Source of the DNA: Paludibacteraceae bacterium
Lineage (GTDB): Bacteria > Bacteroidota > Bacteroidia > Bacteroidales > Paludibacteraceae
Length of the DNA: 64,000 nucleotides
Direction: 5' to 3'
Assembly: GCA_017508305.1 (NCBI GenBank)
Contig: JAFVZF010000119.1
Location: 34-64,033, forward strand
Shown here: one piece after another, positions 3,654-62,800 of the stretch
Layout: the number at the start of each line of letters is the position of its first letter
Position numbering within the stretch: the stretch's first letter is position 1
Program-made: the position numbers and the translations under genes
The notes under the pieces: generated by a model
Told to the model about the DNA's origin: nothing
Seen by the model: the letters and a program-made list of their open reading frames with translations, nothing else
Databases searched by the model: none

Positions 3654-3692
3654 AAAAAGCGGTGACTGAGTGTATGGAAGTCACCGCTTTTT
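3654..3692. terminator. Bidirectional rho-independent terminator between convergent rsmA and recQ
   Basis: AAAAAGCGGTGACT-loop-AGTCACCGCTTTTT: a perfect 9-bp GC-containing stem flanked by A and T runs. Confidence 0.7.
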
Positions 3693-3713
3693 GTGTATAC
3701 AAGTATGGTTGGT

Positions 3714-7843: not shown

Positions 7844-7849
7844 ATGTTG

Positions 7850-21478: not shown

Positions 21479-21485
21479 AAATAAT

Positions 21486-32755: not shown

Positions 32756-32773
32756 CCAAAGATATGAAAGAGC

Positions 32774-32893
32774 GTACCAAATAGCAAAGCATCCCATACG
32801 GTCCCTGAGCCTGTCAAAGGGCCCTACCAAATAGCAAAGCATCCCATACGGTCCCTGAGCTTGTCGAAGGGCCCGTACAAATTACAAACCATC
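32774..32893. repeat. Tandem 50-bp direct repeat (2.4 copies); each full unit ends in an S-type stem-loop (GGTCCC-TGAGCYTGTCRAA-GGGCC)
   Basis: Unit 32774-32823 and unit 32824-32873 differ at 4 of 50 positions (92% identity). A decayed third partial unit follows. Confidence 0.9.
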
Positions 32894-32907
32894 TTAATTA
32901 TTTTCTT

Positions 32908-33165
32908 ATGGAAACAAAAGCTTACATGTACATTTTATTGTGCGCAGACGGAAGTTACTATACTGGTAGTACCACCAATTTAGATATAAGAATAGCGCAA
33001 CACTTATCAGGTGAAGGCTCTAATTATACCAGAAAACATAAACCAATAAAATTACTCTACACAGAAGAATACGATAGTATTGAGGATGCATTTTTTAGAG
33101 AGAAACAAGTACAAGGTTGGAGTAGAAGAAAAAAAGAGGCGTTAATCTGTGGAGAGTGGAAGTAG
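32908..33165 (+). CDS. GIY-YIG nuclease family protein (stand-alone URI domain, COG2827-like)
   Basis: 85 aa: YMYILLCADGSYYTGSTTNLDIRIAQH...EEYDSIEDAFFREKQVQGWSRRKK. The GIY, YIG, R and E/N positions are recognisable. Confidence 0.88.
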   Translation: METKAYMYILLCADGSYYTGSTTNLDIRIAQHLSGEGSNYTRKHKPIKLLYTEEYDSIEDAFFREKQVQGWSRRKKEALICGEWK

Positions 33166-33185
33166 AGTTTCCTTTGAATATGATT

Positions 33186-33390
33186 GGCATAATCAATGCT
33201 GGCATTTCGACAAGCTCAATGACCGCATTGCTTTGCAATCATATTGCATAATTTTTCGGTCCCTGAGCCTGTCGAATTTTGCGAGTAAGTGAGAGCAATG
33301 ATAAGCTTGCTTAATCATTGCCGAACGAGAGCAACTTATTACATGATTTTAGGCATCGGCTCAGCATAATCCATGTAAACATGGTTTCTG
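33186..33390. repeat. Repeat nest: an inverted S stem-loop, a truncated S unit, an inverted H-core copy and a further hairpin fragment
   Basis: 33201-33226 is the reverse complement of an S unit. 33258-33276 is cggtccctgagcctgtcgaa. The reverse complement of 33281-33335 matches 47057-47110 closely (gcaatgat...atcattgc hairpin). Confidence 0.85.
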
Positions 33391-33467
33391 CATTCACCTC
33401 GCACTAAAATTCATGAGCATAGCGAATAAAGGGCCCGAAACAATGATAAACCAAATATACATTATAC

Positions 33468-35828: not shown

Positions 35829-35992
35829 TTACTCAAAGCTTCGCTTTTCGTGAAGTTGCTTTCGTTAGCTTCGCTCAAGTTGCTCACGCTCGGCATAATC
35901 AATGCAAACATTGCTTCTGCTCTCGCTTAATCGCAACAGTCGGCATAATCAATGTAAACATTGCTTCTGCTCTCACTTAATCGCAACTTTTG
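35829..35992. repeat. H-core repeat element whose hairpin-containing half is tandemly duplicated (35891-35940 and 35941-35987)
   Basis: ...gttgctcacgct followed by two copies of cggcataatcaatg(c/t)aaacattgcttctgctct(c/t)(g/a)cttaatcgcaac. Confidence 0.9.
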
Positions 35993-35993
35993 A

Positions 35994-37220: not shown

Positions 37221-37228
37221 ATTTTATT

Positions 37229-37384
37229 GATGAATCGACTAATCGACTAACCGACTAATCGAAGGTTGTTATTAAAAGGGTGAAAATAGCTTGCTCACAT
37301 ATAAGTGGTGATTCGGTGATACGGTGATTCGGTGATTCGGAAGTTATCAACTCACCGCCTCACCAAATAACCAACTCACCGATT
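37229..37384. repeat. Two word arrays (CGACTAAT-type at 37233-37262; GGTGATTC- and CACC-type at 37307-37384) filling the OYE / 5alpha-reductase spacer
   Basis: gaatcgactaatcgactaaccgactaatcga ... ggtgattcggtgatacggtgattcggtgattcgg ... ctcaccgcctcaccaaataaccaactcaccgatt. Confidence 0.9.
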
Positions 37385-38150: not shown

Positions 38151-38159
38151 ATTATTTTG

Positions 38160-38266
38160 ACTAATCGACTAATCGACTAACCGACCAATCGAGAATTATG
38201 TTATGAATAAAATTATTCGCATTCGCTCATGCCTTTTATTATTAAAATTATTCGCATTCGCTCATG
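38160..38266. repeat. Word array (CGACTAAT-type, 38160-38193) followed by a 22-bp unit, aaattattcgcattcgctcatg, repeated twice
   Basis: Read directly. The units lie at 38210-38231 and 38245-38266. Confidence 0.8.
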
Positions 38267-44906: not shown

Positions 44907-44909
44907 AAA

Positions 44910-45055
44910 TGTTTATGTGTTTATGCGTTTAGTCGTTTAGTCGTTTAGTCGTTTATGTATTCAAAGCTTCGCTTTTCATGATTTCAGGCTGCGCCTTGGC
45001 ATAACCAAACAAGTTTGCTTCTGCGCTCGGCTTGCACTGAAATTCGATTCGGTTT
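44910..45055. repeat. Word array (GTCGTTTA x3) plus a degenerate H-core-like element
   Basis: gcgtttagtcgtttagtcgtttagtcgtttatg, then ttcaaagcttcgcttttcatgatttcaggctgcgccttggcataaccaaacaagtttgcttctgcgctcggc. Compare 35829-35900. Confidence 0.7.
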
Positions 45056-47030: not shown

Positions 47031-47146
47031 TTACTCGGGCTTCGCCCTCGTGATTTTGCTCACGCTCGGCAATGATTAAGCAAGCTTATCATTGCTCTCG
47101 CTTACTCGCAAAATTCACCGCATCACCGAATAACCGCATCACCAAC
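47031..47146. repeat. Complete H-core element (47031-47111) followed by a word array (47112-47146)
   Basis: ttactcgggcttcgccctcgtgattttgctcacgctcggCAATGATTAAGCaaGCTTATCATTGctctcgcttactcgcaa, then aattcaccgcatcaccgaataaccgcatcaccaac. Confidence 0.9.
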
Positions 47147-48920: not shown

Positions 48921-48960
48921 GTCGCTTCGCTCCGGTGAATCGGTGAATCGGTGATTCGAA
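48921..48960. repeat. Word array (GGTGAATC x2, GGTGATTC) upstream of rpsB
   Basis: gtcgcttcgctccggtgaatcggtgaatcggtgattcgaa. Confidence 0.8.
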
Positions 48961-49047
48961 TTTCCAAATAGCTATACCGAGCAAAAGTCTATAAAATCCG
49001 ATAGGTTTAGATACTAAACAGCTTCCAATAAGGGTAGCAAAAGTGTA

Positions 49048-50028: not shown

Positions 50029-50147
50029 AAATGAGAAATGAGAAAGGAGAAAGGAGATTTTTTTATTTTTTTTGTTGAAAGGCAGAAAGTTGCACTCGCT
50101 ACGCAGGTATCGACTCACCGACTCACCGCATCACCGAATCACCAATT
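50029..50147. repeat. Word arrays (GAGAAATG/GAGAAAGG type at 50029-50058; CGACTCAC/CGCATCAC type at 50110-50147)
   Basis: aaatgagaaatgagaaaggagaaaggagatt ... cgactcaccgactcaccgcatcaccgaatcaccaatt. The second array abuts the ispG stop. Confidence 0.85.
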
Positions 50148-51675
50148 ATTTTGCTTCAAACCAATCCCCATTGGCCTTGATAAGTTCGATAAGGCGGTCT
50201 ACGGCTTCTTCTTCGGGAATGTTTTTTTCGATGCAGTTTTGACCCTTGTAGAGGCTTATTTTGCCACGACCGGCACCTACATAGCCATAGTCGGCATCTG
50301 CCATTTCGCCCGGACCGTTTACGATGCATCCCATAATGCCTATTTTTAAGGTAGTAAGGTGCGAGGTTTTGGCTTTGATGCGGGCAATGGCGGTTTGGAT
50401 ATCAAAAAGTGTTCTGCCACAGCTGGGGCAAGAGATGTATTCGGTTTTGCTCATGCGGGCACGTGCAGCCTGCAAAATGCTGTAACCTAATGCTTCTGTG
50501 TCTGCTGCCGAGATGCCCTCTGCCTCGATGCAAATGCCGTCTGCCAACCCATCGATAAAGAAACTGCCCAACTGAGCAGCAGCTGTTAGCTGTAGTTCTT
50601 TGAGCGATAAATCAGTATATTTTCGATAAACGATAACCGGTTGTTTGTTGCCCTCTTGTTGCATCTTGCCAAATAGGTAGCGACCTTGCTCCAATGGATT
50701 GTCGTGGTCTAACACCATTAGCATAACGCCTTGTGGAACCTCTGTGCCCGCATTCCATACCACAGGCAGTGCGCCTCCGCCAATTTCGCCCACGGCAATA
50801 CTGTCGCGGCGGCTGTATTTTTCGCCATTGTACCAATCCATGTTACAGGCAGGCATGGCAGGGGCTTGCATGGCCTTTTCTGCCAAACTAACCAAAGCAC
50901 GAGCCACCGGAATTTCGTTGGCGGGGTCTTCGCTAAGCGACACGCGAATGGTATCGCCTATACCTTCTAATAATAAGGTGCCAATGCCCACTGCCGATTT
51001 GATACGACCGTCTTCGCCCTCGCCGGCTTCGGTAACGCCCAAGTGGATAGGAAAGTTTAGCCCCTCGGCATCCATGCGGCGTACCATTTGGCGTACCGTA
51101 TGTATCATAACACGCGTGTTTGATGCTTTTACCGAAATCACCACGTTATTAAAGTCTTGTTCTTTGCAGATGCGCAGAAACTCCAAGCAGCTTTCGGTCA
51201 TGCCTTCGGGCGTATCGCCGTACTTATCGAGCATCCGAGCACCTAACGAACCATGATTTACGCCAATGCGAATGGCAGTGCCGTGTTCTTTGCAAAGTGT
51301 CAAGAACGGAATAAATTTGGCACGAATCTCCTCGTAGGTTGATGCGTAGTTGCCCGGATTGATGCGTACTTTTTCGATGTGCAAGGCAGCTTCGCTGGCA
51401 GCATTGGGATTAAAATGCACGTCTGCTACCAAAGGAGTATCGTAGCCCTTGGCGCGTAGTGCTGCTTTGATGTTTGCCATGTTGGCAGCTTCTTTTACGC
51501 CTTGTGTGGTAAGGCGAACCAATTCGCCGCCAGCCTCAATTACCTCAATAGCTTGTGCCACGCAGGCATCGGTATCGGTGGTAAAAGTATTTAGCATCGA
51601 TTGTACACGAACGGGGTTGTTGCCACCCATTTGTAGGTTGCCTATTTGTACGGTTTTGGTAAGTCTTCTGTTCAT
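50146..51675 (-). CDS. ispG: 4-hydroxy-3-methylbut-2-en-1-yl diphosphate synthase (flavodoxin), long form with insert domain
   Basis: 509 aa. VQIGNLQMGGNNPVRVQSM, RINPGN, and the C-terminal Fe-S Cys motif CPSCGR...GCIVNGPGE. Confidence 0.95.
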   Translation of the reverse strand: MNRRLTKTVQIGNLQMGGNNPVRVQSMLNTFTTDTDACVAQAIEVIEAGGELVRLTTQGVKEAANMANIKAALRAKGYDTPLVADVHFNPNAASEAALHIEKVRINPGNYASTYEEIRAKFIPFLTLCKEHGTAIRIGVNHGSLGARMLDKYGDTPEGMTESCLEFLRICKEQDFNNVVISVKASNTRVMIHTVRQMVRRMDAEGLNFPIHLGVTEAGEGEDGRIKSAVGIGTLLLEGIGDTIRVSLSEDPANEIPVARALVSLAEKAMQAPAMPACNMDWYNGEKYSRRDSIAVGEIGGGALPVVWNAGTEVPQGVMLMVLDHDNPLEQGRYLFGKMQQEGNKQPVIVYRKYTDLSLKELQLTAAAQLGSFFIDGLADGICIEAEGISAADTEALGYSILQAARARMSKTEYISCPSCGRTLFDIQTAIARIKAKTSHLTTLKIGIMGCIVNGPGEMADADYGYVGAGRGKISLYKGQNCIEKNIPEEEAVDRLIELIKANGDWFEAK

Positions 51676-51860
51676 ATTGTTTAGTTGTTTATTCGGGCTT
51701 TGCCCTCATGAAGTTGCTCACGCTCGGCATAACAAATAAATTTGTTCTGCTCTCGCTTAATCGCAACTTTAGTCGTTTAGTCGTTTGGCGATGAGCTATG
51801 ATTGATATGTTGCACTGCGCAATTGCATCATCGCATCACCGCATCACCGCATAGCCAATT
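51676..51860. repeat. Word array + H-core (51688-51767) + word arrays, filling the spacer and entering the 3' end of the next gene
   Basis: attgtttagttgtttattcgggctttgccctcatgaagttgctcacgctcggcatAACAAAtaaaTTTGTTctgctctcgcttaatcgcaactttagtcgtttagtcgtttgg ... catcgcatcaccgcatcaccgcatagcc. Confidence 0.9.
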
Positions 51861-52751
51861 ATTTAATTTGGTCGATAATTTGGCAGCGCCTTGCCGGTTT
51901 AAGTGGTCGGCATCGTAAAAATCATCGTCGGTAAAGGTACTATCTTTTAAGTAATTTAAATAGGTTACGTGTTCATATTTTTTATCCAACTGCTCGCAAA
52001 TGCGTTGCGTCTTGCCCCACATGGTCGAATCCAATAAGGTGTAGTAGCTTGGATGGGTAGGAGTTGTGAGCAAAATGACGTTGATGCCCTTTTGTTGGCA
52101 GGTTTCGATAATCTGAGTAAGTCGTTGTTGGTTAGGCAGGGTGCTTTGCAGGCTGTTACGGCTGTGGTGAGCAACCGTGTGCATGGCCTCTTGCTTAAAG
52201 TTGGGTTTTTGGTCGCCCCATTGGCGTTTGTAGCCCCAGCCCAACGAGTCGGCAACGGCAAAATTAAGCGGCTTGCCCATTTGTTTGGCAATGCCCAAGT
52301 ATTTTTCTTTGTTGATAAGCTCTAAATGGTAAATGGGGTTAATGGGGTGGTAGGTACAGCCCATATAGATGTGGTATCCCTTTACATGTGCCCAAGCGCC
52401 GCCATCTTCCATCTCGCTAAAAAGCGAAAAGTAAGAAACAGGCAAAATAATGGTTTGCAGGCTGCTGCATTTGTTTATGTATCGATGTAGCAGGTACTGG
52501 TCGTATTGGATGCTTTGCGAGGGAAAACCAAGATTGTAGGTCTTTTTATCAAAACAATCGGGACGAATGCCGTAAAAACCATGCGAAGAACCAAAGGTAA
52601 GCACTTGTACCGAAGGGGCATTTGCCTGCATCCAAGCCTCTTTGTTTCGATAATCGTTGTCGATACTGCGCAAAACCACCTCGATGCCGGTAAGCAACAG
52701 CAACATCGGCAGTATATAGGTAAGCATCGTTTTCAGTAAAAATCGTTTCAT
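51828..52751 (-). CDS. Hypothetical membrane-anchored protein, SGNH/DltD-like; probable partner of the upstream MBOAT acyltransferase
   Basis: 307 aa with an N-terminal TM helix. It has a GSSHGFYG (GDS-like) block and a late DADHLNRQGA (DxxH-like) block. Its start lies 7 nt after the MBOAT stop. Confidence 0.45.
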   Translation of the reverse strand: MKRFLLKTMLTYILPMLLLLTGIEVVLRSIDNDYRNKEAWMQANAPSVQVLTFGSSHGFYGIRPDCFDKKTYNLGFPSQSIQYDQYLLHRYINKCSSLQTIILPVSYFSLFSEMEDGGAWAHVKGYHIYMGCTYHPINPIYHLELINKEKYLGIAKQMGKPLNFAVADSLGWGYKRQWGDQKPNFKQEAMHTVAHHSRNSLQSTLPNQQRLTQIIETCQQKGINVILLTTPTHPSYYTLLDSTMWGKTQRICEQLDKKYEHVTYLNYLKDSTFTDDDFYDADHLNRQGAAKLSTKLNNWLCGDAVMR

Positions 52752-52757: not shown

Positions 52758-54278
52758 TTAGAACTGAAAATAAATAAAGTTTTGCTGTGGTCCCATGTTG
52801 ATGATAATCAAAAGCGATAGGATAAAATAAATGCAGTATCGTACTGCATTGTTATGTATGCCCCTAACGGCAAGTCCGTGGTTTTCTGTGCGGTTAAACC
52901 ATTCCATGCCAATCATTATCAGCAACGGCAAAAAGATAAATACCTTGTTGGTAAGGTAGGGCATGTCCCATAGCTGGGGAGTACACAAACGTTCAAAATA
53001 CAGCAAGGTCATGTCCATGTTGTCCGATCGAAAGATAACCCATCCCACTACAGCCAATAAAAAAGTAATAGTCATCTTTGCTACTTCCGATAGGGAGGGC
53101 CAACATTTTACTGCCTTCAAATCGGTGGCATCCTTTGCCATAGAGCAAGTTGCCACCACATTGGTATATTTTCTGTTTTTCTCCAATAATATAAGCGGTA
53201 AGAATAGCAGGGCATGATAGGTTCCCCACACCAAAAAAGTCCAGTTGGCACCGTGCCAAAAGCCCGACAGTAAAAAGATAGTAAAGGTGTTGCGTACAAT
53301 TATTGCCTTTTTATACAAGGTAGGGTGTGCAGTGCCTTGTGGCAAGTTAGGACGCGAGCCTCCCAAGGGGATGTACACATAGTCCCTAAACCAAGTGGTG
53401 AGTGATATGTGCCATCGGCGCCAAAACTCGGCTATGTCGCGCGAAAAATAGGGCACGTTAAAGTTGCGCATCAGCTTGATGCCAAACAGTTTGCCCAAGC
53501 CGATGGCAATGTCGGAGTAGCCCGAAAAATCGCCATAAATCTGAAACGTAAACAGCACGGCAGCCACTGCCAAGGTGGCGGCATTGTGGCTTTCTATATC
53601 GGCAAAAATAATATCCACGTAATAGGCGCAGTTGTCGGCTACCACCACTTTTTTAAACATGCCCCACAGTATTTGGCGCAAACCATCTACGCCATCGGCA
53701 TAATTAAAACTGCGTTTTTGTAGAAATTGGGGCAGTAGGTTGGTGGCACGTTCAATGGGTCCTGCCACCAATTGTGGGAAAAAACTAAGAAACGCCGTAA
53801 AGGCAAGCAGGTTGGTGGTGGGTGGCAGCTTGCCTTTGTACACGTCTATGCTGTACGACAGTGCCTGAAAGGTGTAAAAACTAATGCCCACGGGCAAGAT
53901 AAGGTGCAACAGGTGTTTTTGGGCATCTATTTGTAGTAGGCTCGCCAATGAACTAACAAAAAAATCGTAGTATTTGTACATGCCCAAAATAAACAAGTTT
54001 ACCAGCACGTTACCCAGCATCCAAGCCTTTTTGTGCCATCTAACTTGGCTACGACCTATGGCAATGCCACTGACATACGAGCAAAGCGTGGTAAAGGCAA
54101 TGAGCAGCAAAAAGCGGGCGTCCCACCACCCATAAAACAGGTAGCTGGCACCTACTACCAACGCATTTTGGCAGACAAGTTGATACTTGCTGCCCCGCAT
54201 GGCATGGCCAAATACCCACCAATACAACGCAAAAACGATGGGCAAGAAAACCAAAAACTCGAACGAATTAAAGAGCAT
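52758..54278 (-). CDS. MBOAT family O-acyltransferase (AlgI/DltB-like)
   Basis: 506 aa and polytopic. NFNVPYFSRDIAEFWRRWHISLTTWFRDYVYIPLGG contains the conserved MBOAT His region. Confidence 0.9.
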   Translation of the reverse strand: MLFNSFEFLVFLPIVFALYWWVFGHAMRGSKYQLVCQNALVVGASYLFYGWWDARFLLLIAFTTLCSYVSGIAIGRSQVRWHKKAWMLGNVLVNLFILGMYKYYDFFVSSLASLLQIDAQKHLLHLILPVGISFYTFQALSYSIDVYKGKLPPTTNLLAFTAFLSFFPQLVAGPIERATNLLPQFLQKRSFNYADGVDGLRQILWGMFKKVVVADNCAYYVDIIFADIESHNAATLAVAAVLFTFQIYGDFSGYSDIAIGLGKLFGIKLMRNFNVPYFSRDIAEFWRRWHISLTTWFRDYVYIPLGGSRPNLPQGTAHPTLYKKAIIVRNTFTIFLLSGFWHGANWTFLVWGTYHALLFLPLILLEKNRKYTNVVATCSMAKDATDLKAVKCWPSLSEVAKMTITFLLAVVGWVIFRSDNMDMTLLYFERLCTPQLWDMPYLTNKVFIFLPLLIMIGMEWFNRTENHGLAVRGIHNNAVRYCIYFILSLLIIINMGPQQNFIYFQF

Positions 54279-55764
54279 CTATCAGTGTGGTTAGTTTCAT
54301 AGAGTTAGAACCTTTGATGAGCAATGTTTTGCCCGATAGAGGATGCGCTTGCAACCATTCTTTAAACAGAGAGGTCGATGCAAAGCGTGTGCCGATACCT
54401 GTTGTGGTTTCAAAATTTTTGCCCAATAAGTATGCCTCGCCAATGCCCAGCTGCTCCAATAATGACACTACTTTTTGGTGTTCGGTAGCGCTGTCGTCGC
54501 CCAATTCAAACATATCGCCCAAAATAACGGCTTTGCTATCGGTTTGAATCAAAGCAAAGTTGCGCAGTGCCGCTTCCATGCTGGTTGGATTGGCGTTGTA
54601 GGCATCTACAATTAGGGTGTTGCGCTCGGTTTTGGTTAGTTGCGAGCGGTTGTTTTGAGGGGTATAATCGCTCAATGCTTTGACAATTTGCGCAGCAGGT
54701 ACGCCAAAGTAGTGTCCCACGCAGGCTGCCGATAGCATGTTGCTCACGTTGTAGCTACCAATTAATTGGCTATTAACGTGGTAATTGTTGCCGTCGATGT
54801 TTAGGTCGATGTTTACAAAAGGAGTGCAGCTTACCACTTTGCCGTTAACGGGCAGGGCAGGGTTGGTGCCGTATAATTCGGTCACTGAGCTTGTCGAAGT
54901 GCCCGAATTATACGATTCATCGTTTTCTATGTTAGCAAGCATTTCTTTTAGGTGTGCATTATCGGCATCGACAAACACCGTTTTGCCACGGCTTAGCAGG
55001 TTGTGGTAAAGTTCTGCCTTGGTGTTTTTAACGCCCTCAAAACTACCAAAACCTGCCAAATGCGCCTTGCCCACGTTGGTAATAAGCCCTGCATCGGGCA
55101 TTACGATGTTGGCTAAAAACGCAATTTCGCCAGGATGGTTGGCACCTATTTCTATCACTGCCATGTTGTGCTCTTTGGTAAGGCGCAGTAGGGTTAAAGG
55201 CACGCCAATGTGGTTGTTAAAGTTGCCAAGGGTATAGAGTACGTTGTATTTTTTTGCCAATACAGCAGCCACCAACTCTTTGGTGGTGGTTTTGCCGTTG
55301 GTGCCCGTTATGCCTACGATGGGCGTGCCCAATACTTTGCGGTGGTGTGCTGCCAATTGTTGCAGTGCCACAAGGGTGTCTTCTACGTAGATATAGGGTG
55401 ATTCGGTGATTTGGTGATTTGGTGAGTCGATGTTCTGTCCCTGAGCTTGTCGAAGGGTCGATTCACCGATTACTCGGGCTTCGCCCTCATGAAGTTGCTC
55501 ACGCTCGGCATAATCAATGTAAACATTGCTTCTGCTCTCGCTTAATCGCAACTTTAGTCGATTAGTCGATTCATCGGAAGTTAACAACTCTTTGCGCGAG
55601 GTAAGCACGTACTTGCACCCCATCTCTACGGCTTTTTCGGCAAATTCGTTGCCATCAAAGTTTTCGCCCTTAAGGCACACAAACAAATTGCCCGCTTGGC
55701 AGGCACGACTATCGGTGCACACCCCGTTGCATGCCAAATAAGCTTGGTATATAGTTTCGATCAT
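54268..55764 (-). CDS. murF: UDP-N-acetylmuramoyl-tripeptide--D-alanyl-D-alanine ligase carrying in-frame repeat-element insertions
   Basis: 498 aa. CTDSRACQAGNLFVCLKGENFDGNEF, P-loop GITGTNGKTTTKE, IEIGANHPGEI and DAYNANPTSM. Residues about 62-123 are encoded by a composite repeat. Confidence 0.9.
   Translation of the reverse strand: MIETIYQAYLACNGVCTDSRACQAGNLFVCLKGENFDGNEFAEKAVEMGCKYVLTSRKELLTSDESTNRLKLRLSESRSNVYIDYAEREQLHEGEARVIGESTLRQAQGQNIDSPNHQITESPYIYVEDTLVALQQLAAHHRKVLGTPIVGITGTNGKTTTKELVAAVLAKKYNVLYTLGNFNNHIGVPLTLLRLTKEHNMAVIEIGANHPGEIAFLANIVMPDAGLITNVGKAHLAGFGSFEGVKNTKAELYHNLLSRGKTVFVDADNAHLKEMLANIENDESYNSGTSTSSVTELYGTNPALPVNGKVVSCTPFVNIDLNIDGNNYHVNSQLIGSYNVSNMLSAACVGHYFGVPAAQIVKALSDYTPQNNRSQLTKTERNTLIVDAYNANPTSMEAALRNFALIQTDSKAVILGDMFELGDDSATEHQKVVSLLEQLGIGEAYLLGKNFETTTGIGTRFASTSLFKEWLQAHPLSGKTLLIKGSNSMKLTTLIDAL
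54872..54912. repeat. S-type stem-loop inside murF: a perfect 10-bp outer stem (TATAATTCGG/CCGAATTATA) enclosing TCAC-TGAGCTTGTCGAA-GTGC
   Basis: Read directly. Same loop as the copies at 32800-32823, 32850-32873, 33201-33226 (inverted), 55437-55457 and 59802-59840. Confidence 0.85.
55397..55576. repeat. Composite element inside murF: word array (55397-55432), S unit (55437-55457), words, H-core (55470-55552), word array (55553-55576)
   Basis: The H-core differs only slightly from the intergenic copies at 35881-35940 and 51688-51767. The segment that looks inserted spans 186 bp (62 codons), so the murF frame is preserved. Confidence 0.9.
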
Positions 55765-55852: not shown

Positions 55853-55939
55853 GCAAAAGTGTGAAAAACATAGTGATTTCGCCTACTTTTTCACAGGTTT
55901 GCTGTGATTTTTGATAGGAAAGGTGTGAAAAAGTGGTAT
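55853..55939. repeat. Left copy of an 87-bp direct repeat bracketing the ATPase gene
   Basis: gcaaaagtgtgaaaaacatagtgatttcgcctactttttcacaggtttgctgtgatttttgataggaaaggtgtgaaaaagtggtat. It ends 1 nt before the ATPase stop codon and contains GTGTGAAAAA twice plus its inverted copy TTTTTCACAG. Confidence 0.9.
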
Positions 55940-57361
55940 TTATTTAAATAAATCCTCCAGTTTTACCTCCGACTGAATGGAATTCCAATAGGTATTCCGT
56001 TTTAAACCAAATGAGGTAACCATGGTGAGGTGAATGGATTTTGTGGTTTTTGAATATTTTCTAAATATCTCCTTTCTTTCTATCATCCAGTTGTTATAAT
56101 CCTGCGTAATGGCATATTCATGGTTGCTGTATTTCATTTCGCATAAATTGATAATGCCATCTTTGCGATCAATAATCAAATCAATTTGAATTCCTTTGTT
56201 AGAATTGTTTGTTTTTTGGTGCCATGCAGAACATTCTGCATATACTCCCGAGATGCCTAAAGCAGCTTTAATCTGTGGAATATGCCACAAACACAAACGT
56301 TCAAAGGCTAATCCCGCCCAATTGTAATAGATAGGGGAGTCTATGTTATAACTCCAAAAGTTAGCTTCGTGCGATTTGTTCTCTTGTATAAATTGCAGGT
56401 AAAATAATGTAAAATTGTCAATCAATTGATAAATGAGGTTGTTTTTAGGCTTCCCAAAACTATTATAAGAACGAATAAAACCACTTTGTTCCAATTCTAT
56501 CAAGGTGCGCTTAAAAACAGCGTTGTTAGAAAGTTTAGCGGTTTTCAATATTTCGTCCCTTTTCATGCCGTATCTTTTGCTTCCCAGGGCTTTTACTATG
56601 CTAATGTAATTTTCGGGACGCTTAAAGATAGAGGCATATAAGGCATTAAATTCATTTTTGAACGTGGCATTCTCGTAAAAGAATAGACGATCGACGTTTT
56701 GTGCCAAACTCTCTCCCTTACGCAAAAAACTCCAATAGTACGGAATACCTCCCATAATCATATACGCCTCTGCAATATCTTTTGCGGATAACTCGAGATT
56801 TGAAGCTTTAACGTATTCTTGGCAGGCACTGAGTGAGAAAGGTTGAAGGTTGATTTGTTCTGTTACTCTATTATATAGCCCGCCCGTGTTGTTAATGATA
56901 TTGTTTATAATCCACGTAGTAGAGCTACAGCATGTTATAAGTACGACATCTTCGCGTGCACTAAGGTATCCATTCCAGAAGTGCTCCAATGCGCTTACAA
57001 AGCCACTTTGTTTTGCGTCTAACCAAGATAGTTCGTCCAAAAAGATAACTTTCTTTTCGTTTGTTGGCGTTTGTTCTATCAACGAAAGCAAACTCATAAA
57101 GGCTTCGCTCCAATCGCTTGGTCTGCTGTGTTGCTTAGGTAGCCCATAACGTAAAAGCGATAGGTAAAACTCTTTTAATTGTGTACTTTTATTTCCATTA
57201 GCAACTCCTGTGTGCGAGAACAGGAAATTATTTTGGAAGGTTTGTCTAATTAGATATGTTTTTCCAACACGTCTTCTGCCGTAAATGACGCAAAACTGAC
57301 TTTCTTGCTTGTTTAGCAAATTAAGTAAAATGGACTGTTCTTTATCTCTTCCTATTAGCAT
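55940..57361 (-). CDS. AAA-type ATP-binding protein (archaeal-ATPase-like N-terminal domain + DUF234-type C-terminal domain)
   Basis: ATG at 57359-57361 gives MLIGRDKEQSILLNLLNKQESQFCVIYGRRRVGKTYLIRQ (Walker A), then VIFLDELSWL (Walker B). The ORF-track N-terminal extension reads through the flanking repeat. Confidence 0.8.
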   Translation of the reverse strand: MLIGRDKEQSILLNLLNKQESQFCVIYGRRRVGKTYLIRQTFQNNFLFSHTGVANGNKSTQLKEFYLSLLRYGLPKQHSRPSDWSEAFMSLLSLIEQTPTNEKKVIFLDELSWLDAKQSGFVSALEHFWNGYLSAREDVVLITCCSSTTWIINNIINNTGGLYNRVTEQINLQPFSLSACQEYVKASNLELSAKDIAEAYMIMGGIPYYWSFLRKGESLAQNVDRLFFYENATFKNEFNALYASIFKRPENYISIVKALGSKRYGMKRDEILKTAKLSNNAVFKRTLIELEQSGFIRSYNSFGKPKNNLIYQLIDNFTLFYLQFIQENKSHEANFWSYNIDSPIYYNWAGLAFERLCLWHIPQIKAALGISGVYAECSAWHQKTNNSNKGIQIDLIIDRKDGIINLCEMKYSNHEYAITQDYNNWMIERKEIFRKYSKTTKSIHLTMVTSFGLKRNTYWNSIQSEVKLEDLFK

Positions 57362-57420
57362 AGCTGAAGTTTCTTTTAGGCAAATATAAACAAAAATATA
57401 AGAAAGTGAACAAATTTGCG

Positions 57421-57507
57421 GCAAAAGTGTGAAAAACCATGTGATTTTTCCTACTTTTTCACAGGTTTGCTGTGGTTTTTGATAGGAAAGGTGTGAAAAA
57501 GTGGTAT
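57421..57507. repeat. Right copy of the 87-bp direct repeat (upstream of the ATPase gene)
   Basis: gcaaaagtgtgaaaaaccatgtgatttttcctactttttcacaggtttgctgtggtttttgataggaaaggtgtgaaaaagtggtat. Only a handful of mismatches to 55853-55939. Confidence 0.9.
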
Positions 57508-57630
57508 AAACAGGCAATAAAAGATCAACGGCTGTAACTTATCTAAGCTTACATAAATGTTAAACATATATTGAAATTTGTGAATGAAGGCTATTTTAAA
57601 TATTTTTGTACTATAAAATACTGTAATAAT

Positions 57631-58089
57631 ATGAGCACTACGAGTTATAGCAATGGATATAGTGGATTGGCTATCGCGGATTACTTTGTAAAAAAAGCTT
57701 TATCTCAAAATGAATCCATAACTAATATGCAAGTACTTAATATGATGTACTTTGCACAAACATTTGGATTTACAGAATTAAACAGGCGGTTAATTAAAGA
57801 TGAATTTTACGCTTGGCAATGGGGACCTGTTGAGCCTAAAACATACGCGGAATTTCGGAAATATGGAGGTCAAAGTATAAAAGAAATTTCCCATAAAACT
57901 AATAAGGAACTTGACGATATAGAGAGTCAAAAAGATATAAAAGAATTTCTTGATAAAATATATATACTGCGAACAGCAGATCCTTTTGTTCTTAACAAAA
58001 AAACTAACGGTCTTGGTAGCCCATGGGCTGAAACAAACCCTTATGGTGCAATTGACATAAGTCTAATTCGTAATGATTTTATAAAATAA
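57631..58089 (+). CDS. Panacea (DUF4065) domain protein, SocA/GepA-like putative antitoxin
   Basis: ATG at 57631. 152 aa: LAIADYFVKKALSQNESITNMQVLNMMYFAQTFGFTELNRRLIKDEFYAWQWGPVEPKTYAEFRKYG fits the DUF4065 pattern (KLQKLLYFAQ...AWxxGPVxxxVY). AT-rich. Confidence 0.75.
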   Translation: MSTTSYSNGYSGLAIADYFVKKALSQNESITNMQVLNMMYFAQTFGFTELNRRLIKDEFYAWQWGPVEPKTYAEFRKYGGQSIKEISHKTNKELDDIESQKDIKEFLDKIYILRTADPFVLNKKTNGLGSPWAETNPYGAIDISLIRNDFIK

Positions 58090-58460
58090 TGAGCCAGCTA
58101 GATAATTTTATTTCAGAATATGCTAATACGGACCCTAATGTTTCAGTTAGTCCAAGCAAGGTGCAAGAAAGTTTCCAGTTGCTAGATAAAGATTATGAGA
58201 TTTCTCAAAAAATAATAGAATTAGTACAAATTAAAGATAAACTTGCTGATATTGATTTAAAGAAGATTTACGGAATCTGCCTACTTGTAATTTTAGCTTT
58301 ATGGATTATTATGGTGGCATTTATTTGTATTACTTATATCTTTCAGGACTCTCCTCACGTTTCTGATACTGTTCTAATTACATTATTTACGACCACAACA
58401 GCTAATATAGTGGCTCTTCCAACCTTAGTATTAAAGTATTTGTTTCCTATAAAAGACTGA
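58089..58460 (+). CDS. Small two-TM membrane protein, translationally coupled to the Panacea gene (candidate toxin partner)
   Basis: 123 aa. Its ATG overlaps the upstream TAA (TAATG). A soluble ~68-aa N-terminus is followed by IYGICLLVILALWIIMVAFICITYIF and VLITLFTTTTANIVALPTLVL. Confidence 0.6.
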   Translation: MSQLDNFISEYANTDPNVSVSPSKVQESFQLLDKDYEISQKIIELVQIKDKLADIDLKKIYGICLLVILALWIIMVAFICITYIFQDSPHVSDTVLITLFTTTTANIVALPTLVLKYLFPIKD

Positions 58461-58494
58461 AATAAAAAAATCAATCCGGTCAAATAGGTAAAAT

Positions 58495-58525
58495 AAAGGT
58501 TCAGAAGAAATGCTTCTGAACCTTT
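58495..58525. terminator. Bidirectional rho-independent terminator between the convergent TM-protein and LRR genes
   Basis: AAAGGTTCAGAAG-aaatg-CTTCTGAACCTTT. Confidence 0.8.
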
Positions 58526-58560
58526 ATTACATAACTTATTAAGGAAACTTTTACGTAAAC

Positions 58561-59247
58561 TTATGGCTTGGGCAAAAGTTTAATGCAGATATTCTTATAA
58601 ATATTGTGAAATGCGCTAGTCGTAATACCACATGGCAGCTGTCCTACAAAATATACAGTTCTCAAATTTTCGCATGATGCAAACGCCATTGGTTCAATGT
58701 ATTCTACACCATATGGAATGGTAATTTCTGTCCCTTTATAATGGCACAAAGCATATTCGCCAATAATTTTAACTCCTCGCCAGTCTTCTGCAGTAATAGG
58801 GATATTTGTAGAAGCATATATCAATCTTTCGCCAGAATAATCCGTAACGATAATATTTTTTGTTTCTTTGAAGAATCTATTCGGTTCATCTGTTTCTGGG
58901 TTGTCTATGATAATGCTACCTACGGTACAATTGCAAAAGGAGAATCCACTAAAAACTCTTAAGGTAGGAGGCAAATGTAACTCTGTAATATCTCCACCTA
59001 TTGCTGCACCACATATACCTATAACTTGGTACACCTCATTATGATGTTTAACAGCTTCTGGAATACATAACACCGTTCTGCCTTTCTCCTTCTTAACAGC
59101 AGAACTTGTTACCATTGAAACCATAACGCTACCTGCCTTATTATTCTCAGGTTCTTTATCAATAGCATAATGAATCCCGTTCTCATCAAAGGAGCCACCT
59201 CCGCCAAAGGGTACATCTGGTGATAAATTTTTAATCTCGTGTTTCAT
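58561..59247 (-). CDS. BspA-type leucine-rich-repeat (LRR_5) domain protein, no signal peptide seen
   Basis: ATG at 59245-59247 (MKHEIKNLSP). Segments such as IGEYALCHYKGTEITIPYGVEYIEPMAFASCENLRTVYF match the BspA-like LRR pattern. The ORF-track start is a TTG 18 codons upstream. Confidence 0.6.
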   Translation of the reverse strand: MKHEIKNLSPDVPFGGGGSFDENGIHYAIDKEPENNKAGSVMVSMVTSSAVKKEKGRTVLCIPEAVKHHNEVYQVIGICGAAIGGDITELHLPPTLRVFSGFSFCNCTVGSIIIDNPETDEPNRFFKETKNIIVTDYSGERLIYASTNIPITAEDWRGVKIIGEYALCHYKGTEITIPYGVEYIEPMAFASCENLRTVYFVGQLPCGITTSAFHNIYKNICIKLLPKP

Positions 59248-59305
59248 AATGATATATTTTAAGGTTAAACATAAAACCCTACCGTTTCCGGTAGGGTTCA
59301 AGCAA

Positions 59306-59761
59306 TCACATTGTTTTTGTCACTTTGGTTCGATACACCGCTACGGCACCGTATGCCGCTACAAGGGCAAGTAGAAAGGCGGTGGGGGCGTCGAGGGGAA
59401 GAGAGGTACCGTTAGTACATGATTTAATACATGTGGTATTCAATGTACCACATTCTAAAATTTTATCAAAATCATCTCCAGCGGCTTCTTCACATGGACC
59501 TAATACGATTTCCTCGCAACACGTTTGACAATCAGTGGGGTCGCCTTGTACTCCTTCTGTGGTACAATGATAAAGATCGTACTCGCCACTGCCTACAACG
59601 CTATAGCCCTCTATAGAAATACCTGTTCCCATTTGAAAGCTATGGTTTTCGGCAGGACCAGCGTAACCTCTAGAATATGGCGAAGTGGGTAACTTAACAG
59701 CAAAACAAGCAGAGGCAATAGCCCAAACTAACACGCTTATAACTAATCTTATGTTTTTCAT
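59306..59761 (-). CDS. Small Cys-rich secreted/anchored protein with a C-terminal hydrophobic helix plus basic tail
   Basis: 151 aa. Signal peptide MKNIRLVISVLVWAIASAC, nine further Cys (CQTCCEE, PCEE, ECGT, TCIKSC) and the C-terminus SLPLDAPTAFLLALVAAYGAVAVYRTKVTKTM. Confidence 0.6.
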   Translation of the reverse strand: MKNIRLVISVLVWAIASACFAVKLPTSPYSRGYAGPAENHSFQMGTGISIEGYSVVGSGEYDLYHCTTEGVQGDPTDCQTCCEEIVLGPCEEAAGDDFDKILECGTLNTTCIKSCTNGTSLPLDAPTAFLLALVAAYGAVAVYRTKVTKTM

Positions 59762-59801
59762 TTCTTTATAAATTACTTCGAAATTTGACTAATCGGCTAA
59801 T

Positions 59802-59840
59802 CTATTCCGGTCACTGAGTTTGTTGATGTGCCCGGAATAG
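59802..59840. repeat. S-type stem-loop (9-bp perfect outer stem CTATTCCGG/CCGGAATAG) between the giant T9SS gene and the Cys-rich gene
   Basis: ctattccgg-tcactgagtttgttgatgtgc-ccggaatag, preceded by the word fragment gactaatcggctaatc. Confidence 0.8.
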
Positions 59841-59855
59841 ACACCGTATCATCTT

Positions 59856-62800
59856 TTATTTTAAAATTACTTTACCTGTTTTGGTTGCATTATCGCCAAT
59901 TACCTTAACGGTATATACTCCTTGAGTTACAGGAAGATTTAGTTCTACATACTGTCCAGACACGTTATATACAGAGCTTCTACCACTCATGTCGTTTACA
60001 ATAATGGTTTGTAGTTCTACTTCATTATTGCAACTAACTATAATGCGCTGTCCTTTGCTCAATATGTTGATGTTTTTGTCAGATATGCTATCTTCGATGT
60101 CAGTAACCACCTCATCTTCTACTTGTTCTTTTGCGCCAACATTTAAGAAGAAGCGTCCTTCGCAATCGCCTACTTTAAGACCAGTTACCGTGCAAGTTTC
60201 GCCTGCCAATAGGTTATAGGTTTTACCCTCTAGGCGGTCTTCTAACATAACCGTAGCCATATCTGCTTCACTATCCAAAGAGAATACAAAGGTTTGATCT
60301 GCTTCCGATACTCTAATACCCAATGGGATAGGTTCGTCGTAGGTAGGCACTCTTACACCTGCCCATTTTTTGTTGTAACGCATAATGTACAAGTCGGGTA
60401 GTTTTGTTTCTTGTGCGTTAAATACTTTAGGAGCATCGGTATCGTAGTTAATTACGTCGTCTTTTAACCAGTCGATGCTTAGATTTACTGTACTGCTTGC
60501 TTCTGCAGCCTGATTGCTTACAGTAATGCTTACTTCTGGCATGTATTCTGCTATGCTACGATGCTCAGTATTGCTTACCTCAAATGCTTCGGCAGGGATA
60601 GTAAGATCTCCATCCTTACCTGGTGTATATACAAAACCATGTTGGGCAATGATTAGTTCAGTAGCTTCTGCAAGTCTAAATGATTTATCATCATAATCAT
60701 AGATTTGAACTGTACCTCCTGTTTTGCTCTTCATAACATCAATGTTAATATTAGCAGGATAACTGTTGTTTAATAGTACAGGTTGACCTGCAGTTAAGTC
60801 AGTATAGGTAGGCAATGCTCCTTCGTTGGTAAAACGACCATTAAAGGTGTAGGCAATAGGTTGAGTTGCATCGTAAGACGTACTAAAGTATTTGTTGTAC
60901 AACTCTGCCGGGAACATTAAGTTGGTGCCGTACATATCTGGAATTTGAATAGCAAATACCTTGTTAGCAGGAACCTCTATGTTCAAATCTGGGAACGGAT
61001 TTTCCCAAGATACGTTGTTACCGCTCATTTTTGCCTCGTGCATCCAAACATGTGGCAATTGTTTTTCAATAAAGTAGTGACCCGAGAGCATATCGCCAGC
61101 CTTGCCACTTCCATCAAATGGTCTAATAATAGGACCTACTAATATCCATTTGCTGCGTGGAACGATTAATTCGGTACTTGCTTGGGTATAACGTTCGGTT
61201 TTACCTTCTGCTGCCAATTCTTCTACACCAATAAGTGCTGCACCGTATTCCATGGTAATGCCATTTGCCACCTTGGTAGGAGTACTTATTTTACCTTTAC
61301 CTGCCGATACCTCTTCGCCATACCAATCAGCAGTACGTTGGGTAGAGAAGTCATCTTCGTCTGCTATGGCAGGAAGCTTAGGATATTCTGCCACACCACC
61401 TTCTGGTACAGGATATTTGGTAGTATTAGGAGCAGGTATAATTACTTCTAAGTCTTCTGTTAGCACGTCCACACAAGTTACCAACTGACCATTGGGTTTG
61501 TACCAGTTGTTACGGTTGTCCCATTCGGTAGAGGTAGAACCGTGCCAAATAATTCGTGACACTTCTGTACCTTCTCCTTGTTGGTAAGCACCAATGGTGT
61601 ATTCTCCAACGCCCTCCGTGGTGTTAGGATCGTATGGACGAGGATTGCCCAAACGGTCTATCTTTTGCATTTCGGTGGTTAATAATTCTGATGCATCTGT
61701 CTTAATAAAGGCACCGGTATTTAGCGAGTTGCCTTTAATAACCAACGAACCAGGTTCTTCTGGCGATGTTCTACATACCAAGTTTTGAACATTGGTAAAG
61801 GTATTTTCTGTTCCACAACCTGTGCCTAATTCAAAGGCAGAACGGGTTGGTTTAGGATTTTGCGTTTCTTCGTATGCACTCCAGAAGTTGTTGTACTTAA
61901 ACGAACCACACCAATCTGATTCATCCATGGTTTGCAAATAGTGGGATGCTCCACTTGCAGTATTCTTACCATATACGTCTGTATCGTAAGAATAACAGTT
62001 GTTGTAGTCAAACTCTATAGTCTCTGGATCATAATTACCAGTATTACCTGTTTGTTGGCTACCACCTATACGGAAGAAGTCAAAATAGTTATAATAACCA
62101 GCACCTACTGAGTTGTCTTTTAAGAACATGGTATTGTAATAAATACCAATGTTTTGCAGTGGATTATTTGAGCCAAACGAACTTAAACGGATAATGGCAA
62201 CGGTGTTTACATTGGTTTGTACCGCATTTTCGTGCCAGAACACGTTGTTGTAAATAAGAACGCTTTGGGTGCCTTGCAACAGAATAGAGGTAGCGTGCTG
62301 ACCCGTAAAGTTATTGCGCACAAACTTGATGTTCTTACAGTTAATAAACTTAGCAGAAGCACCCCAGTTGGCAGTATTGTCTTTTTCAGTACTGTTTACA
62401 AAATCATACATCGCCTTAAATTCGTTGTTTTCAAAGGTGATGCCATCGTAAGCCGCTACGTGTAAACAGGTAAAGCCATACGACTCTACAAGACAGTTTT
62501 TAATGTTAATATTGGCATCCACTATACCGCCTAATGGAACCGAGTTCCAGTCAGTGCCTAAACCTTCTGTGTTGCCTGTACCTTCGCCGCTATCAATGTC
62601 CATCGCATTGTCTGCATCTGCCACATCTTTAGAAGAACCAGTAAGGTTCAAATAATCCAATGTGATGTTTTTAGAACGACGAATAACTACGTGTTGTAGG
62701 GTAGCACGGGTTGCACTCTTGTCGATAGAACGCACAATAAGCGGTTTGCCTCCGTTGTAGTTTATGTTGCGGAAGAAGATTGCTTTTACTTCTCTCATAT

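Follow-up and report, generated by a model that had tools for sequence, protein, structure and literature searches.

The stretch of DNA described here (the window) comprises 64,000 nucleotides of contig JAFVZF010000119.1 from the Paludibacteraceae assembly GCA_017508305.1 (positions 34 to 64,033 of the forward strand). It contains a gene for a small GIY-YIG nuclease and copies of a short hairpin repeat, named S, which bracket this gene in opposite orientations and also occur inside murF, the gene for UDP-MurNAc-tripeptide--D-Ala-D-Ala ligase. A sequence-only reading of the window had described seven S copies with covarying arms and a conserved 13-nt loop, and had suggested the adjacent nuclease as a possible partner. 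The main features are listed below, with bit scores from a covariance model (R1) that was built from 97 S copies and used to rescan the window; the two hot spots of murF are sites of length variation among its orthologues.

32908..33165, plus strand: gene for an 85-amino-acid (aa) single-domain GIY-YIG nuclease, UPF0213/YhbQ-like, with Pfam PF01541 as its sole domain (E 4e-18).
32847..32877, plus strand: S copy forming the invariant left bracket of the GIY-YIG gene, 31 nt upstream of the ATG; 40.5 bits, E 3e-11.
32797..32827, plus strand: second upstream S copy, in a 50-bp tandem unit; 31.7 bits.
33197..33227, minus strand: S copy forming the invariant right bracket of the GIY-YIG gene, 32 nt after the stop codon, invariant in strain contigs L085-L094; 36.8 bits.
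33259..33279, plus strand: truncated S copy with the 5' arm and centre but without the 3' arm; partial model match, model positions 10-22, 13.5 bits.
54268..55764, minus strand: murF, 498 aa, with the Pfam domains Mur_ligase, Mur_ligase_M and Mur_ligase_C.
54872..54912, plus strand, antisense to murF: S copy inside murF at hot spot 2, with a 10-bp outer stem; 40.5 bits; translated as YNSGTSTSSVTELY.
55433..55463, plus strand: S copy inside murF at hot spot 1, within a mosaic insertion of ~185 nt; 32.3 bits; translated as ESTLRQAQGQ.
55389..55571, plus strand: mosaic insertion in murF, made of an 8-bp tandem array, S, a ~100-nt module and a second 8-bp array; in frame, residues ~63-120.
59802..59840, plus strand: intergenic S copy between two minus-strand open reading frames (ORFs), with a diverged centre TGAGTTTGTTGAT and a 9-bp outer stem; 27.5 bits.
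3658..3688, plus strand: divergent S-like copy, GCGGTGAC TGAGTGTATGGAA GTCACCGC; 24.9 bits, E 9e-6.

The pattern GTCNNTGAGYYTGTYRAWNNG, with up to three mismatches allowed, has eight matches in the window, compared to 2.1 +/- 1.4 in dinucleotide shuffles, none of which reached eight. The seven copies reported earlier are all present, with pattern starts at 32801, 32851, 33203 (minus strand), 33259 (truncated after TCGAA), 54881, 55437 and 59810, and each differs from the pattern by one mismatch at most. The bare 13-mer TGAGCYTGTCRAA is exact in six copies. The covariance model recovers the truncated copy and all six full ones, the latter at 27-40 bits, and it adds the eighth, divergent copy at 3658-3688, so that the count of seven stands for the original set but falls one short of the total. 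The three arm combinations previously described as covarying (TCCC/GGGC, TCAC/GTGC and TCAT/ATGC) all occur. Two copies have outer stems of 9-10 bp of unrelated sequence, as had been stated: TATAATTCGG/CCGAATTATA (10 bp, the murF copy at 54872) and CTATTCCGG/CCGGAATAG. The fourth arm position is mismatched, and the T.C mismatch said to be conserved there is found in five window copies, but the copy at 55437 has T.T. Family-wide this position is T-A in 59 of 97 copies, and the T.C mismatch is a feature of the window's lineage.

The upstream S copies are carried by two 50-bp tandem units, 32775-32824 and 32825-32874, with 96% identity (repeat family D14). The truncated copy at 33259 is fused to a mosaic module of ~60 nt (33274-33334), which the inverted repeat I1 ties to 47056-47116. 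When folded as single-stranded DNA (ssDNA), the murF copy with the outer stem (54868-54916) reaches -13.3 kcal/mol (z -6.0), the intergenic copy (59798-59844) -10.3 kcal/mol (z -5.2), and the divergent copy at 3658 -17.8 kcal/mol (z -9.0).

The nuclease family provides a larger set of copies. With the 85-aa GIY-YIG ORF as the query, more than 4000 homologues were found at E <= 1e-5, the best 120 at 65-100% identity. The family survey consists of 80 GIY-YIG loci from named genomes (432 kb), with association counts taken over 78 loci. Covariation was scored in an alignment (A3) of 97 non-identical S copies from ~60 genomes, with 500 shuffles and slid registers as controls. In the 432 kb, TGAG-N4-5-TCGAA has 297 unique matches, unfiltered for pairing, where by estimate chance would give a handful at most. 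The centre of the window copies, TGAGCYTGTCGAA, is one variant of the general form TGAG-X-(2-3 nt)-X'-TCGAA. The family loci contain 13-nt centres (TGAGGCTCTCGAA, TGAGGCACTCGAA and TGAGGTTCTCGAA) and 14-nt centres (TGAGCGGAGTCGAA, TGAGCGTAGTCGAA and TGAGCGAAGTCGAA). Watson-Crick pairing of the arms at positions 1-5 is present in 93, 87, 89, 73 and 60% of the 297 copies and reaches a background of ~30% by position 8.

Compensatory changes had been taken as a sign that the structure of S matters, and the larger set bears this out: among the 97 copies, 255 double-sided changes are present compared to 104 expected, and 79.5% of the pairing cells are paired compared to 58.7% in shuffles. The covariation score is 0.526, whereas shuffles give 0.163, none of the 500 reaches the observed value, and slid registers remain at or below 0.167. 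The internal pair X:X' is C:G in 64, G:C in 28, U:A in 2 and another combination in 2 copies. Since X:X' covaries and was not used in selecting the sequences, the 13-nt "loop" is structured. The earlier description of a conserved loop thus holds for the conserved centre, but not for an open loop. In the proposed centre, T1-A13 and G4-C10 would form Watson-Crick pairs, both of them invariant and hence outside the reach of covariation; G2.A12 and A3.G11 would form tandem purine pairs beside a bulged T9, and the one-pair mini-stem X:X' would close a loop of 2-3 nt. Centres with C-GAA-G, C-GTA-G and C-GGA-G resemble the very stable DNA mini-hairpin d(GCGAAGC). Likeness of the centre to a hammerhead, a K-turn or a tRNA T-arm was considered by sequence inspection only and dropped, as the defining nucleotides or bulges are absent.

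S is not symmetrical. The 5' arm has the consensus YCGGTG. Its G at -6 is kept in 267 of the 297 copies, compared to 138 of 297 for the partner C, and S has polarity because this arm is more conserved than the 3' arm. The centre TGAG...TCGAA, invariant and asymmetric, is the non-palindromic part that orients the repeat; (+) and (-) refer to this orientation below. Tandem arrays of S occur elsewhere, as overlapping units with a 23-nt period in Hydrotalea, with a 102-nt period in Empedobacter brevis and with a 42-nt period in an uncultured Bacteroidetes bin (array coordinates L028 3392-3861, L011 18-1700 and L008 3300-3636).

The protein bracketed by S in the window has no NCBIfam model; its family profile matches the PDB entries 1zg2 ('UPF0213 protein BH0048', E 4.5e-23) and 1ywl (E 8.5e-18). 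The layout is S(+) 31 nt before the ATG, the gene, and S(-) 32 nt after the stop codon. Family-wide, the summed density of S over the loci is ~56 per 100 nt up to a distance of 150 nt from the gene and 0.3-1.5 farther out, which is roughly a 50- to 100-fold concentration in the same loci. S lies within 400 nt of the conserved GIY-YIG domain in 59 of 78 loci (76%) and on both sides in 35 (45%). Of the copies closest to the gene, those upstream are (+) in 31 of 41 loci and those downstream (-) in 46 of 53. The suggested role of the hairpin as a recognition site of the adjacent GIY-YIG nuclease is supported by this clustering, while the HUH-type enzyme named as an alternative partner found no support; the presumed partner is of the GIY-YIG type.

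The family loci span Bacteroidota, Chloroflexota (Dehalococcoidia, Anaerolineales), Calditrichia, Ignavibacteriales, Cloacimonadota, Spirochaetia, Hyphomicrobiales, Coriobacteriia and a bin of the candidate phyla radiation. All 80 loci encode a protein with 60-73% identity to that of the window, and this identity over distant phyla implies horizontal spread of the gene and hairpin together. The homologues have 83-147 aa, and their N- and C-terminal extensions relative to the 85-aa protein hold S-derived peptides (PSTSSGT, LRQAQ, SLSLSKG, VEPVET and VTELVEV). A chance or compositional artefact, or a simple palindrome without a specific partner, would agree with the commonness of short palindromes and with the two window copies that fold like shuffled sequence. 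A chance origin is argued against by the shuffle controls and by covariance-model E-values down to 3e-11, and S is conserved across phyla beside one gene family; this explanation is refuted and its probability is close to nil.

Within the window's species, the GIY-YIG gene always lies between mutS and an epimerase gene (10 of 10 strain contigs, L085-L094), and no alternative genomic context was found in these contigs. The bracket S(+)...gene...S(-) is invariant, the left copy (32847..32877) keeping the same offset in all strains, and the 50-bp S tandem upstream varies from 1 to 5 units. The called MutS length ranges from 863 to 949 aa in the same contigs, and the mutS/GIY-YIG and GIY-YIG/epimerase spacers vary too; repeat arrays beside the GIY-YIG gene that expand and are read through are suspected as the cause. 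In Paratractidigestivibacter (Coriobacteriia, L068), four S copies (- - + +) form a block of ~145 nt, and direct duplicates of this block lie to either side of the GIY-YIG gene, at 2838-2985 and 3236-3385. The gene looks as if it were located within an S array or had been copied into one.

Such an arrangement would also be expected if the S-gene-S unit were a homing- or transposon-type element, in which the enzyme cuts S, repair copies the gene into S arrays, and solo S copies are landing pads or footprints. Free-standing GIY-YIG homing endonucleases are an established class. The inverted bracket resembles terminal inverted repeats, the protein identity of 65-75% across distant phyla implies horizontal transfer with the hairpins, and the gene in L068 appears as if inserted into an S array. 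However, the gene occupies one syntenic site in all ten contigs of the species, and no empty or filled site was found for the whole unit. A search of 2.9 million viral contigs for relatives of the protein gave 1 weak match, which is a further point against this explanation and leaves a phage vector for the gene unsupported. SsnA-type enzymes, discussed below, leave double-stranded DNA (dsDNA) uncut (PMC11893778). A homing- or transposon-type unit is improbable, although it is the most plausible of the rival explanations, followed by a role at the RNA level and then by a role at the peptide level.

S is also dispersed away from the nuclease gene. A motif-first metagenome scan for the window subtype GGTCMCTGAGCYTGTCGAAGKGCC yielded 80 loci with 86 copies among the matches listed, a set to which the following counts refer. 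Only 5 of the 86 copies have a GIY-YIG ORF within 500 nt, and 81 are away from one. Long open frames, which here means 150 aa or more with 30 aa or more to either side of the copy, contain 38 of the 86 copies (44%). Pfam domains were recognised in 17 of 20 S-carrying frames tested, among them DNA polymerase I, PriA, ThrRS, EPSP synthase, chorismate synthase, TilS (twice), FeoB, MacB/FtsX, TamB and an SBP_bac_5 protein. An inverted duplication of the target as the source of the outer stems is not general, given that 59 of the 86 copies have no outer extension.

In coding frames S is translated as peptides of 8-9 residues, its core giving GPSTGSGT, ALRQAQGP or PFDKLRD in the (-) orientation and VPEPVEGP in (+). 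Five of the six frames are stop-free, the stop occurring only in the GGT CCC TGA frame. The intragenic orientation is 12(-):5(+), compared to 3:2 expected from open frames alone; since the two are near, stop-free survival rather than peptide selection explains the pattern. A known protein-coding repeat had been named as what would speak against a nucleic-acid structure, and what is found is the same DNA read in five frames and present between genes as well. A reusable peptide module or linker, with the DNA hairpin incidental, would agree with the recurrence of S-derived peptides in many proteins (GPSTGSGT, ALRQAQGP, VPEPVEGP) and with their Gly/Pro/Ser/Thr-rich composition, like that of flexible linkers. 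It is contradicted, and very improbable, as the five frames and orientations give unrelated peptides, orthologues carry S flipped at the same site, over half of the copies lie outside long open frames, and conservation and covariation are at the nucleotide level. The murF inserts, described below, are modelled with low confidence and absent from some orthologues, which also does not favour a peptide role.

Copies at fixed sites are gained, lost and inverted. Two TilS orthologues have S at the same position in opposite orientations. Alleles of Treponema chorismate synthase (aroC), 81-96% identical to the query, have 0, 1(+), 1(-) or 2(-,+) copies in one loop. The length difference between P0264 (ttc cct ggg ccg) and P0245 (ttc cct GAG CCT GTC GAA ggg cca) is exactly the 12-nt centre. 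The alleles L220-L226 and L131 differ by this 12-nt centre, GAGCCTGTCGAA, with both arms kept (CCCT|GGGCC), which suggests that the loop alone was precisely lost or gained. In the outgroup the site reads ttc gac ggc ccg, and the ancestral GGCCC coincides with one hairpin arm in both orientations; the target GGCCC thus appears to supply one arm in AroC. No consistent direct duplication flanks the 86 motif-first copies, among which truly naive empty sites are few; the flanks have a weak consensus, C-T-N-A | S | G-A-C. The gains, losses and flips suggest processing at the hairpin itself and are not attributable to the nuclease.

In the window, murF is host to two S copies. The sequence-only reading had placed one copy (54872) in its frame, which is correct, but the copy at 55437 is also inside murF. 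The former reads ...SGTSTSSVTE... (pattern start 54881) and the latter ...ESTLRQAQGQ.... The MurF protein is 100% identical to an NCBI protein from a Paludibacteraceae metagenome-assembled genome. An examination of orthologues for presence or absence of the insert had been proposed; both states were found, and the 26 orthologues (432-560 aa) differ in length almost only at the two hot spots. S copies, 8-bp arrays and the ~100-nt module combine differently among the orthologues and even swap hot spots (alignment A1). P0013 has S without the ~100-nt module at hot spot 1, and P0012 has neither. The mosaic insertion at 55389..55571 rests on the repeat families D3, D5-D7 and D9.

In the AlphaFold model of MurF (mean pLDDT, the predicted local distance difference test score, of 74), pLDDT is below 50 at residues 63-120 and 285-293, the two inserts. 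Both murF S copies are therefore in segments modelled with low confidence; a third such segment, 230-247, is not an insert. In orthologue P0021, the 21-nt core at hot spot 2 is exactly reverse-complemented between the same 10-bp arms, TATAATTCGG/CCGAATTATA, and encodes NSVTELVEVPELY instead of NSGTSTSSVTELY. The contig of this orthologue (L083) has S copies at 148-178, 1110-1140 and 1953-1983; besides the one inside murF, copies flank the gene closely upstream and downstream, and the murF neighbourhood of this strain is a local S cluster.

The position of S relative to genes also bears on whether it acts as RNA, for example by terminating transcription, stabilising mRNA or regulating the GIY-YIG mRNA in cis, in which case the association with the nuclease would be autoregulation. 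Several copies are directly downstream of genes. The copy at 3658..3688 has a perfect 16-bp stem between convergent ORFs, flanked by AAAAA and TTTTT at 3650-3696. This hairpin looks like a bidirectional intrinsic terminator, and it may have begun as an S copy that was recruited to such a role or decayed into it. G.T pairs outnumber A.C pairs ~3:1 at arm positions 1-6 of the S(+) strand, as expected of folding on one strand, and repetitive extragenic palindromic (REP) sequences have documented roles at the RNA level (PMC3733652). However, the G.T excess is largely due to the conserved G's of the 5' arm and was set aside as proof of one-strand folding for this reason. The copies flanking the nuclease gene are oppositely oriented, so that the downstream transcript carries the complement without the TGAG/TCGAA centre, and the intragenic copies are in both orientations at a ratio near the 3:2 expectation. 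SsnA binds no RNA (PMC11893778). A check of Rfam, proposed earlier, was negative at gathering thresholds for the window and for 20 loci; in E-value mode (E below 10) on 32650-33450 it gave noise only (snR39, mir-676). S occurs both along and against the direction of transcription, flanks the gene as an inverted pair and is found either way round within genes, which argues that it acts as DNA rather than RNA. An RNA-level role is unlikely, slightly more so than a homing- or transposon-type unit.

Other repeats accompany S in the window. Tandem arrays with an 8-bp period, of the types GGTGATTC, TTAGTCGT and AATCGACT, occur at a dozen places:

7845-7895, 21441-21488, 32690-32753, 37207-37262, 37299-37347 and 38137-38192: 8-bp arrays.
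41140-41323, 44896-44970, 48926-48966, 50107-50151, 51828-51872 and 55389-55437: 8-bp arrays.

Where the context was checked, murF included, these arrays adjoin S copies. The murF array reads SPNHQITES, and the arrays stay in frame, as three octamers amount to 24 nt. Another interspersed module, ~100 nt long (TTACTCGGGCTTCGCCCTCATGAAGTTGCTCACGCTCGGCATAATCAATGTAAACATTGCTTCTGCTCTCGCTTAATCGCAAC), is present at 35855-36006, 47031-47116, 51689-51786, 55470-55571 and, inverted, 33274-33334. In murF it encodes LKLRLSESRSNVYIDYAEREQLHEGEARVIGES and is bounded by the direct repeat TGAATCGAC; it is at hot spot 1 in some murF orthologues and at hot spot 2 in others. The ~100-nt module, S and the octamers form mosaics like the bacterial interspersed mosaic elements (BIMEs). 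An 87-nt direct repeat, 93% identical (55853-55939 and 57421-57507), brackets an ATPase_2/AAA ORF at 55940..57517. The block 56001-60000 has a G+C content of 0.358 compared to 0.41-0.46 elsewhere in the window and may be an inserted island. The GC skew of the window is too weak for replication-strand assignment.

A system of comparable build was described in Neisseria meningitidis (Chenal et al. 2025, Nat Commun 16:2388; PMC11893778). SsnA, a 94-aa single-domain GIY-YIG protein (CDD cd10448), binds its hairpin repeat NTS as ssDNA only and on one strand only, cuts a few nucleotides upstream, and is inactive on dsDNA and RNA. The gene layout is NTS-ssnA-NTS, and the corresponding repeats of the family, searched with a degenerate consensus and named SRM, lie near 71% of the homologues and on both sides of 42%. 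Of the SRM-rich genomes, 81% carry ssnA. By analogy, S is probably the cognate hairpin repeat of a small single-domain GIY-YIG nuclease, in a system with the build of Ssn/SRM but with a different hairpin and a sister clade of nuclease. The proposal starts from what was observed: a motif with a covarying structure that is tightly associated, in a preferred orientation, with the gene in many phyla, that is dispersed and lies in frame in real genes, and that is gained, lost and inverted at fixed sites. The strand 5'-(C)GGTGNN-TGAG-X-nn(n)-X'-TCGAA-N'N'CACC(G)-3' would fold into a hairpin once single-stranded, a state that could arise in replication, DNA uptake or repair. The stem would be free to vary in sequence, and the irregular centre, with TGAG facing TCGAA and the one-pair mini-stem, would be sequence-specific. 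The 85-aa nuclease encoded between S(+) and S(-) would recognise the folded strand and nick nearby ssDNA; ssDNA-specific binding and cleavage are attributed to the S-type enzyme here by comparison with SsnA. Copies of the hairpin could spread from the gene in the manner of REPs and their REP-associated tyrosine transposases (RAYTs), or of miniature transposable elements with inverted repeats (MITEs), and the GIY-YIG nuclease would be the cause of this dispersal. With a short core that is stop-free in five of six frames, many copies may persist in coding genes as stretches of 8-9 residues.

Several results weigh against this proposal. The SRM consensus, HGTCWYN(0-2)YYVSBRHN(0-5)WNVSBRGN(0-2)RNCYNB, matches neither the 64-kb window nor any of the 80 S-type loci (432 kb), the pattern itself giving 4 matches in a Shinella locus and 2 in a Sphingobium locus as positive controls. 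The family hidden Markov model scores the UPF0213 proteins BH0048 and EF2693 at 84 and 68 bits, compared to 66 and 62 bits for the SRM-flanked Ssn-type proteins of Shinella and Spirosoma, and in BLAST comparisons with the window protein the UPF0213 pair reaches 76 and 62 bits, compared to 50 and 46 for the Ssn type. Since the nuclease scores nearer to UPF0213, the transfer of SsnA activity is an analogy between sister groups. The RefSeq name of E. coli YhbQ, a UPF0213 member, is 'DNA damage response exodeoxyribonuclease', which is a different activity. Under the search pattern, 19 of 78 loci lack an S copy in the 400 nt to either side of the gene. The gene itself looks non-mobile here because it has one fixed syntenic site in the species, and no target-site duplication or other signature ties dispersal to the GIY-YIG enzyme. 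The short-armed copies at 55428 and 32790 (copies 55437 and 32797) fold no better than shuffles.

The type of system has been known since 2025, whereas this hairpin, this nuclease clade and the high intragenic occupancy appear to be undescribed in the literature searched; searches with S motif strings and derived peptides found nothing relevant. With less confidence, at slightly under an even chance, S and the UPF0213-like GIY-YIG protein may represent an undescribed second nuclease/hairpin lineage beside Ssn/SRM, present in Bacteroidota, Spirochaetota, Chloroflexota and other phyla and missed by the published SRM search. It would colonise essential coding genes with unusual efficiency and undergo enzyme-driven turnover in place (flips and loss of the centre only), and would thus be a source of peptide insertions like the Rickettsia palindromic elements (RPEs), but with an identifiable enzyme partner. 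If the inferred partnership of hairpin and nuclease holds, GIY-YIG/hairpin pairs would not be confined to the cd10448/CGTC-tagged family but would include a second clade, whose hairpin differs in structure. More candidate site-specific ssDNA cutters would become available, which are prospective tools according to the Ssn authors. Palindromic repeats that are in frame in housekeeping proteins, such as RPEs and intragenic REPs, would gain a candidate enzyme partner and a tractable model. Natural allelic series of gain, loss and inversion are at hand in murF, aroC and tilS. The odd recurrent peptides GPSTGSGT, ALRQAQGP, SLSLSKG, VPEPVEG and FDKLRD, and the varying lengths of annotated proteins in these genomes and metagenome bins, would be explained, with effects on gene calling and alignment.

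Among known systems, RPEs resemble S in behaviour only, as both are in frame in unrelated protein-coding genes but share neither sequence nor size. RPEs are palindromic, occur in unrelated housekeeping genes, are translated as an extra peptide and are about half intragenic, and the review that describes them mentions no nuclease partner (PMC10969869). They are ~100-150 bp long and confined to Rickettsia, whereas S has a core of ~24 nt and occurs in several phyla. Rickettsia is among the SRM-rich genera (PMC11893778).

REP/REPIN-RAYT systems and BIMEs also have a nuclease gene at one syntenic site, inverted flanking imperfect palindromes and dispersed copies. The mosaics of S with 8-bp arrays and the ~100-nt module are BIME-like, and intragenic copies are reported for REPs (PMC3733652). 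In contrast, the partner of S is a GIY-YIG protein and not an HUH/Y1 (IS200/IS605-like) transposase, the arm consensus YCGGTG lacks a GTAG or CGTC tag, and specificity lies in the hairpin centre and not in a 5' tail. A 2013 survey of GTAG- and CGTC-tagged REPs found that CGTC REPs were without a transposase and that some REPs were inside genes (PMC3733652). The NTS/SRM consensus starts with the CGTC tag as these CGTC REPs do, whereas S has neither tag. The Ssn authors themselves compare their system to REP/RAYT and BIMEs (PMC11893778).

UPF0213/YhbQ/YazA proteins (Slx1-like URI domain) are the closest relatives with a solved structure (1zg2, 1ywl) and have the same size and a single domain. 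They differ in context: the N. gonorrhoeae YhbQ-like gene (L095) has no S hairpin, and B. subtilis yazA adjoins the tRNA methyltransferase gene trmNF, a housekeeping context. In a tblastn search of an N. gonorrhoeae chromosome whose ssnA content is unconfirmed, the sole match was the YhbQ-like gene (7e-4), without NTS. A Sphingomonas homologue (L096), 50% identical to the window protein, carries S-type hairpins, GGCTGAGCGAAGTCGAAGCC. By the proxy scores against two UPF0213 and two SRM-flanked Ssn-type proteins, the S-type nuclease is homologous to the Ssn type and probably belongs to a sister clade.

Ssn-type GIY-YIG genes with a C-terminal NPDW motif are present in Bacteroidota as well (a Spirosoma plasmid, L099, and L097 and L098). 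Hairpins of yet another type, TTGTCATCC... and TTTTGTCATCCTTCCTGTCGTCAGGATGACAAAA, flank the Spirosoma gene, and these too escape the SRM pattern; both lineages are therefore present in Bacteroidota and SRM-type searches under-count. The canonical Ssn-type Shinella locus has CGTCATCCTCGGGCTTGACCCGAGGATCCAT laid out as (-)(+) gene (-)(+), and the S covariance model has 0 matches in the Ssn-type control loci. The Ssn/SRM system is nevertheless the closest in build to S. Both comprise a small single-domain GIY-YIG protein (94 aa in SsnA, 85 aa in the S type) bracketed by its own hairpin repeat of 20-50 nt, with the nearest upstream copy (+) and the nearest downstream copy (-), and both repeats are oriented by a conserved non-palindromic part. 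The repeat is near 71% of the genes and on both sides of 42% for Ssn, compared to 76% and 45% for S; in both, many copies are dispersed and the systems extend over several phyla. SRM consists of a CGTC tag and a plain stem-loop, whereas S has the irregular centre TGAG/mini-stem/TCGAA between variable arms; NTS is 2% intragenic (PMC11893778), compared to 38 of 86 S copies (44%) in long open frames among the matches listed.

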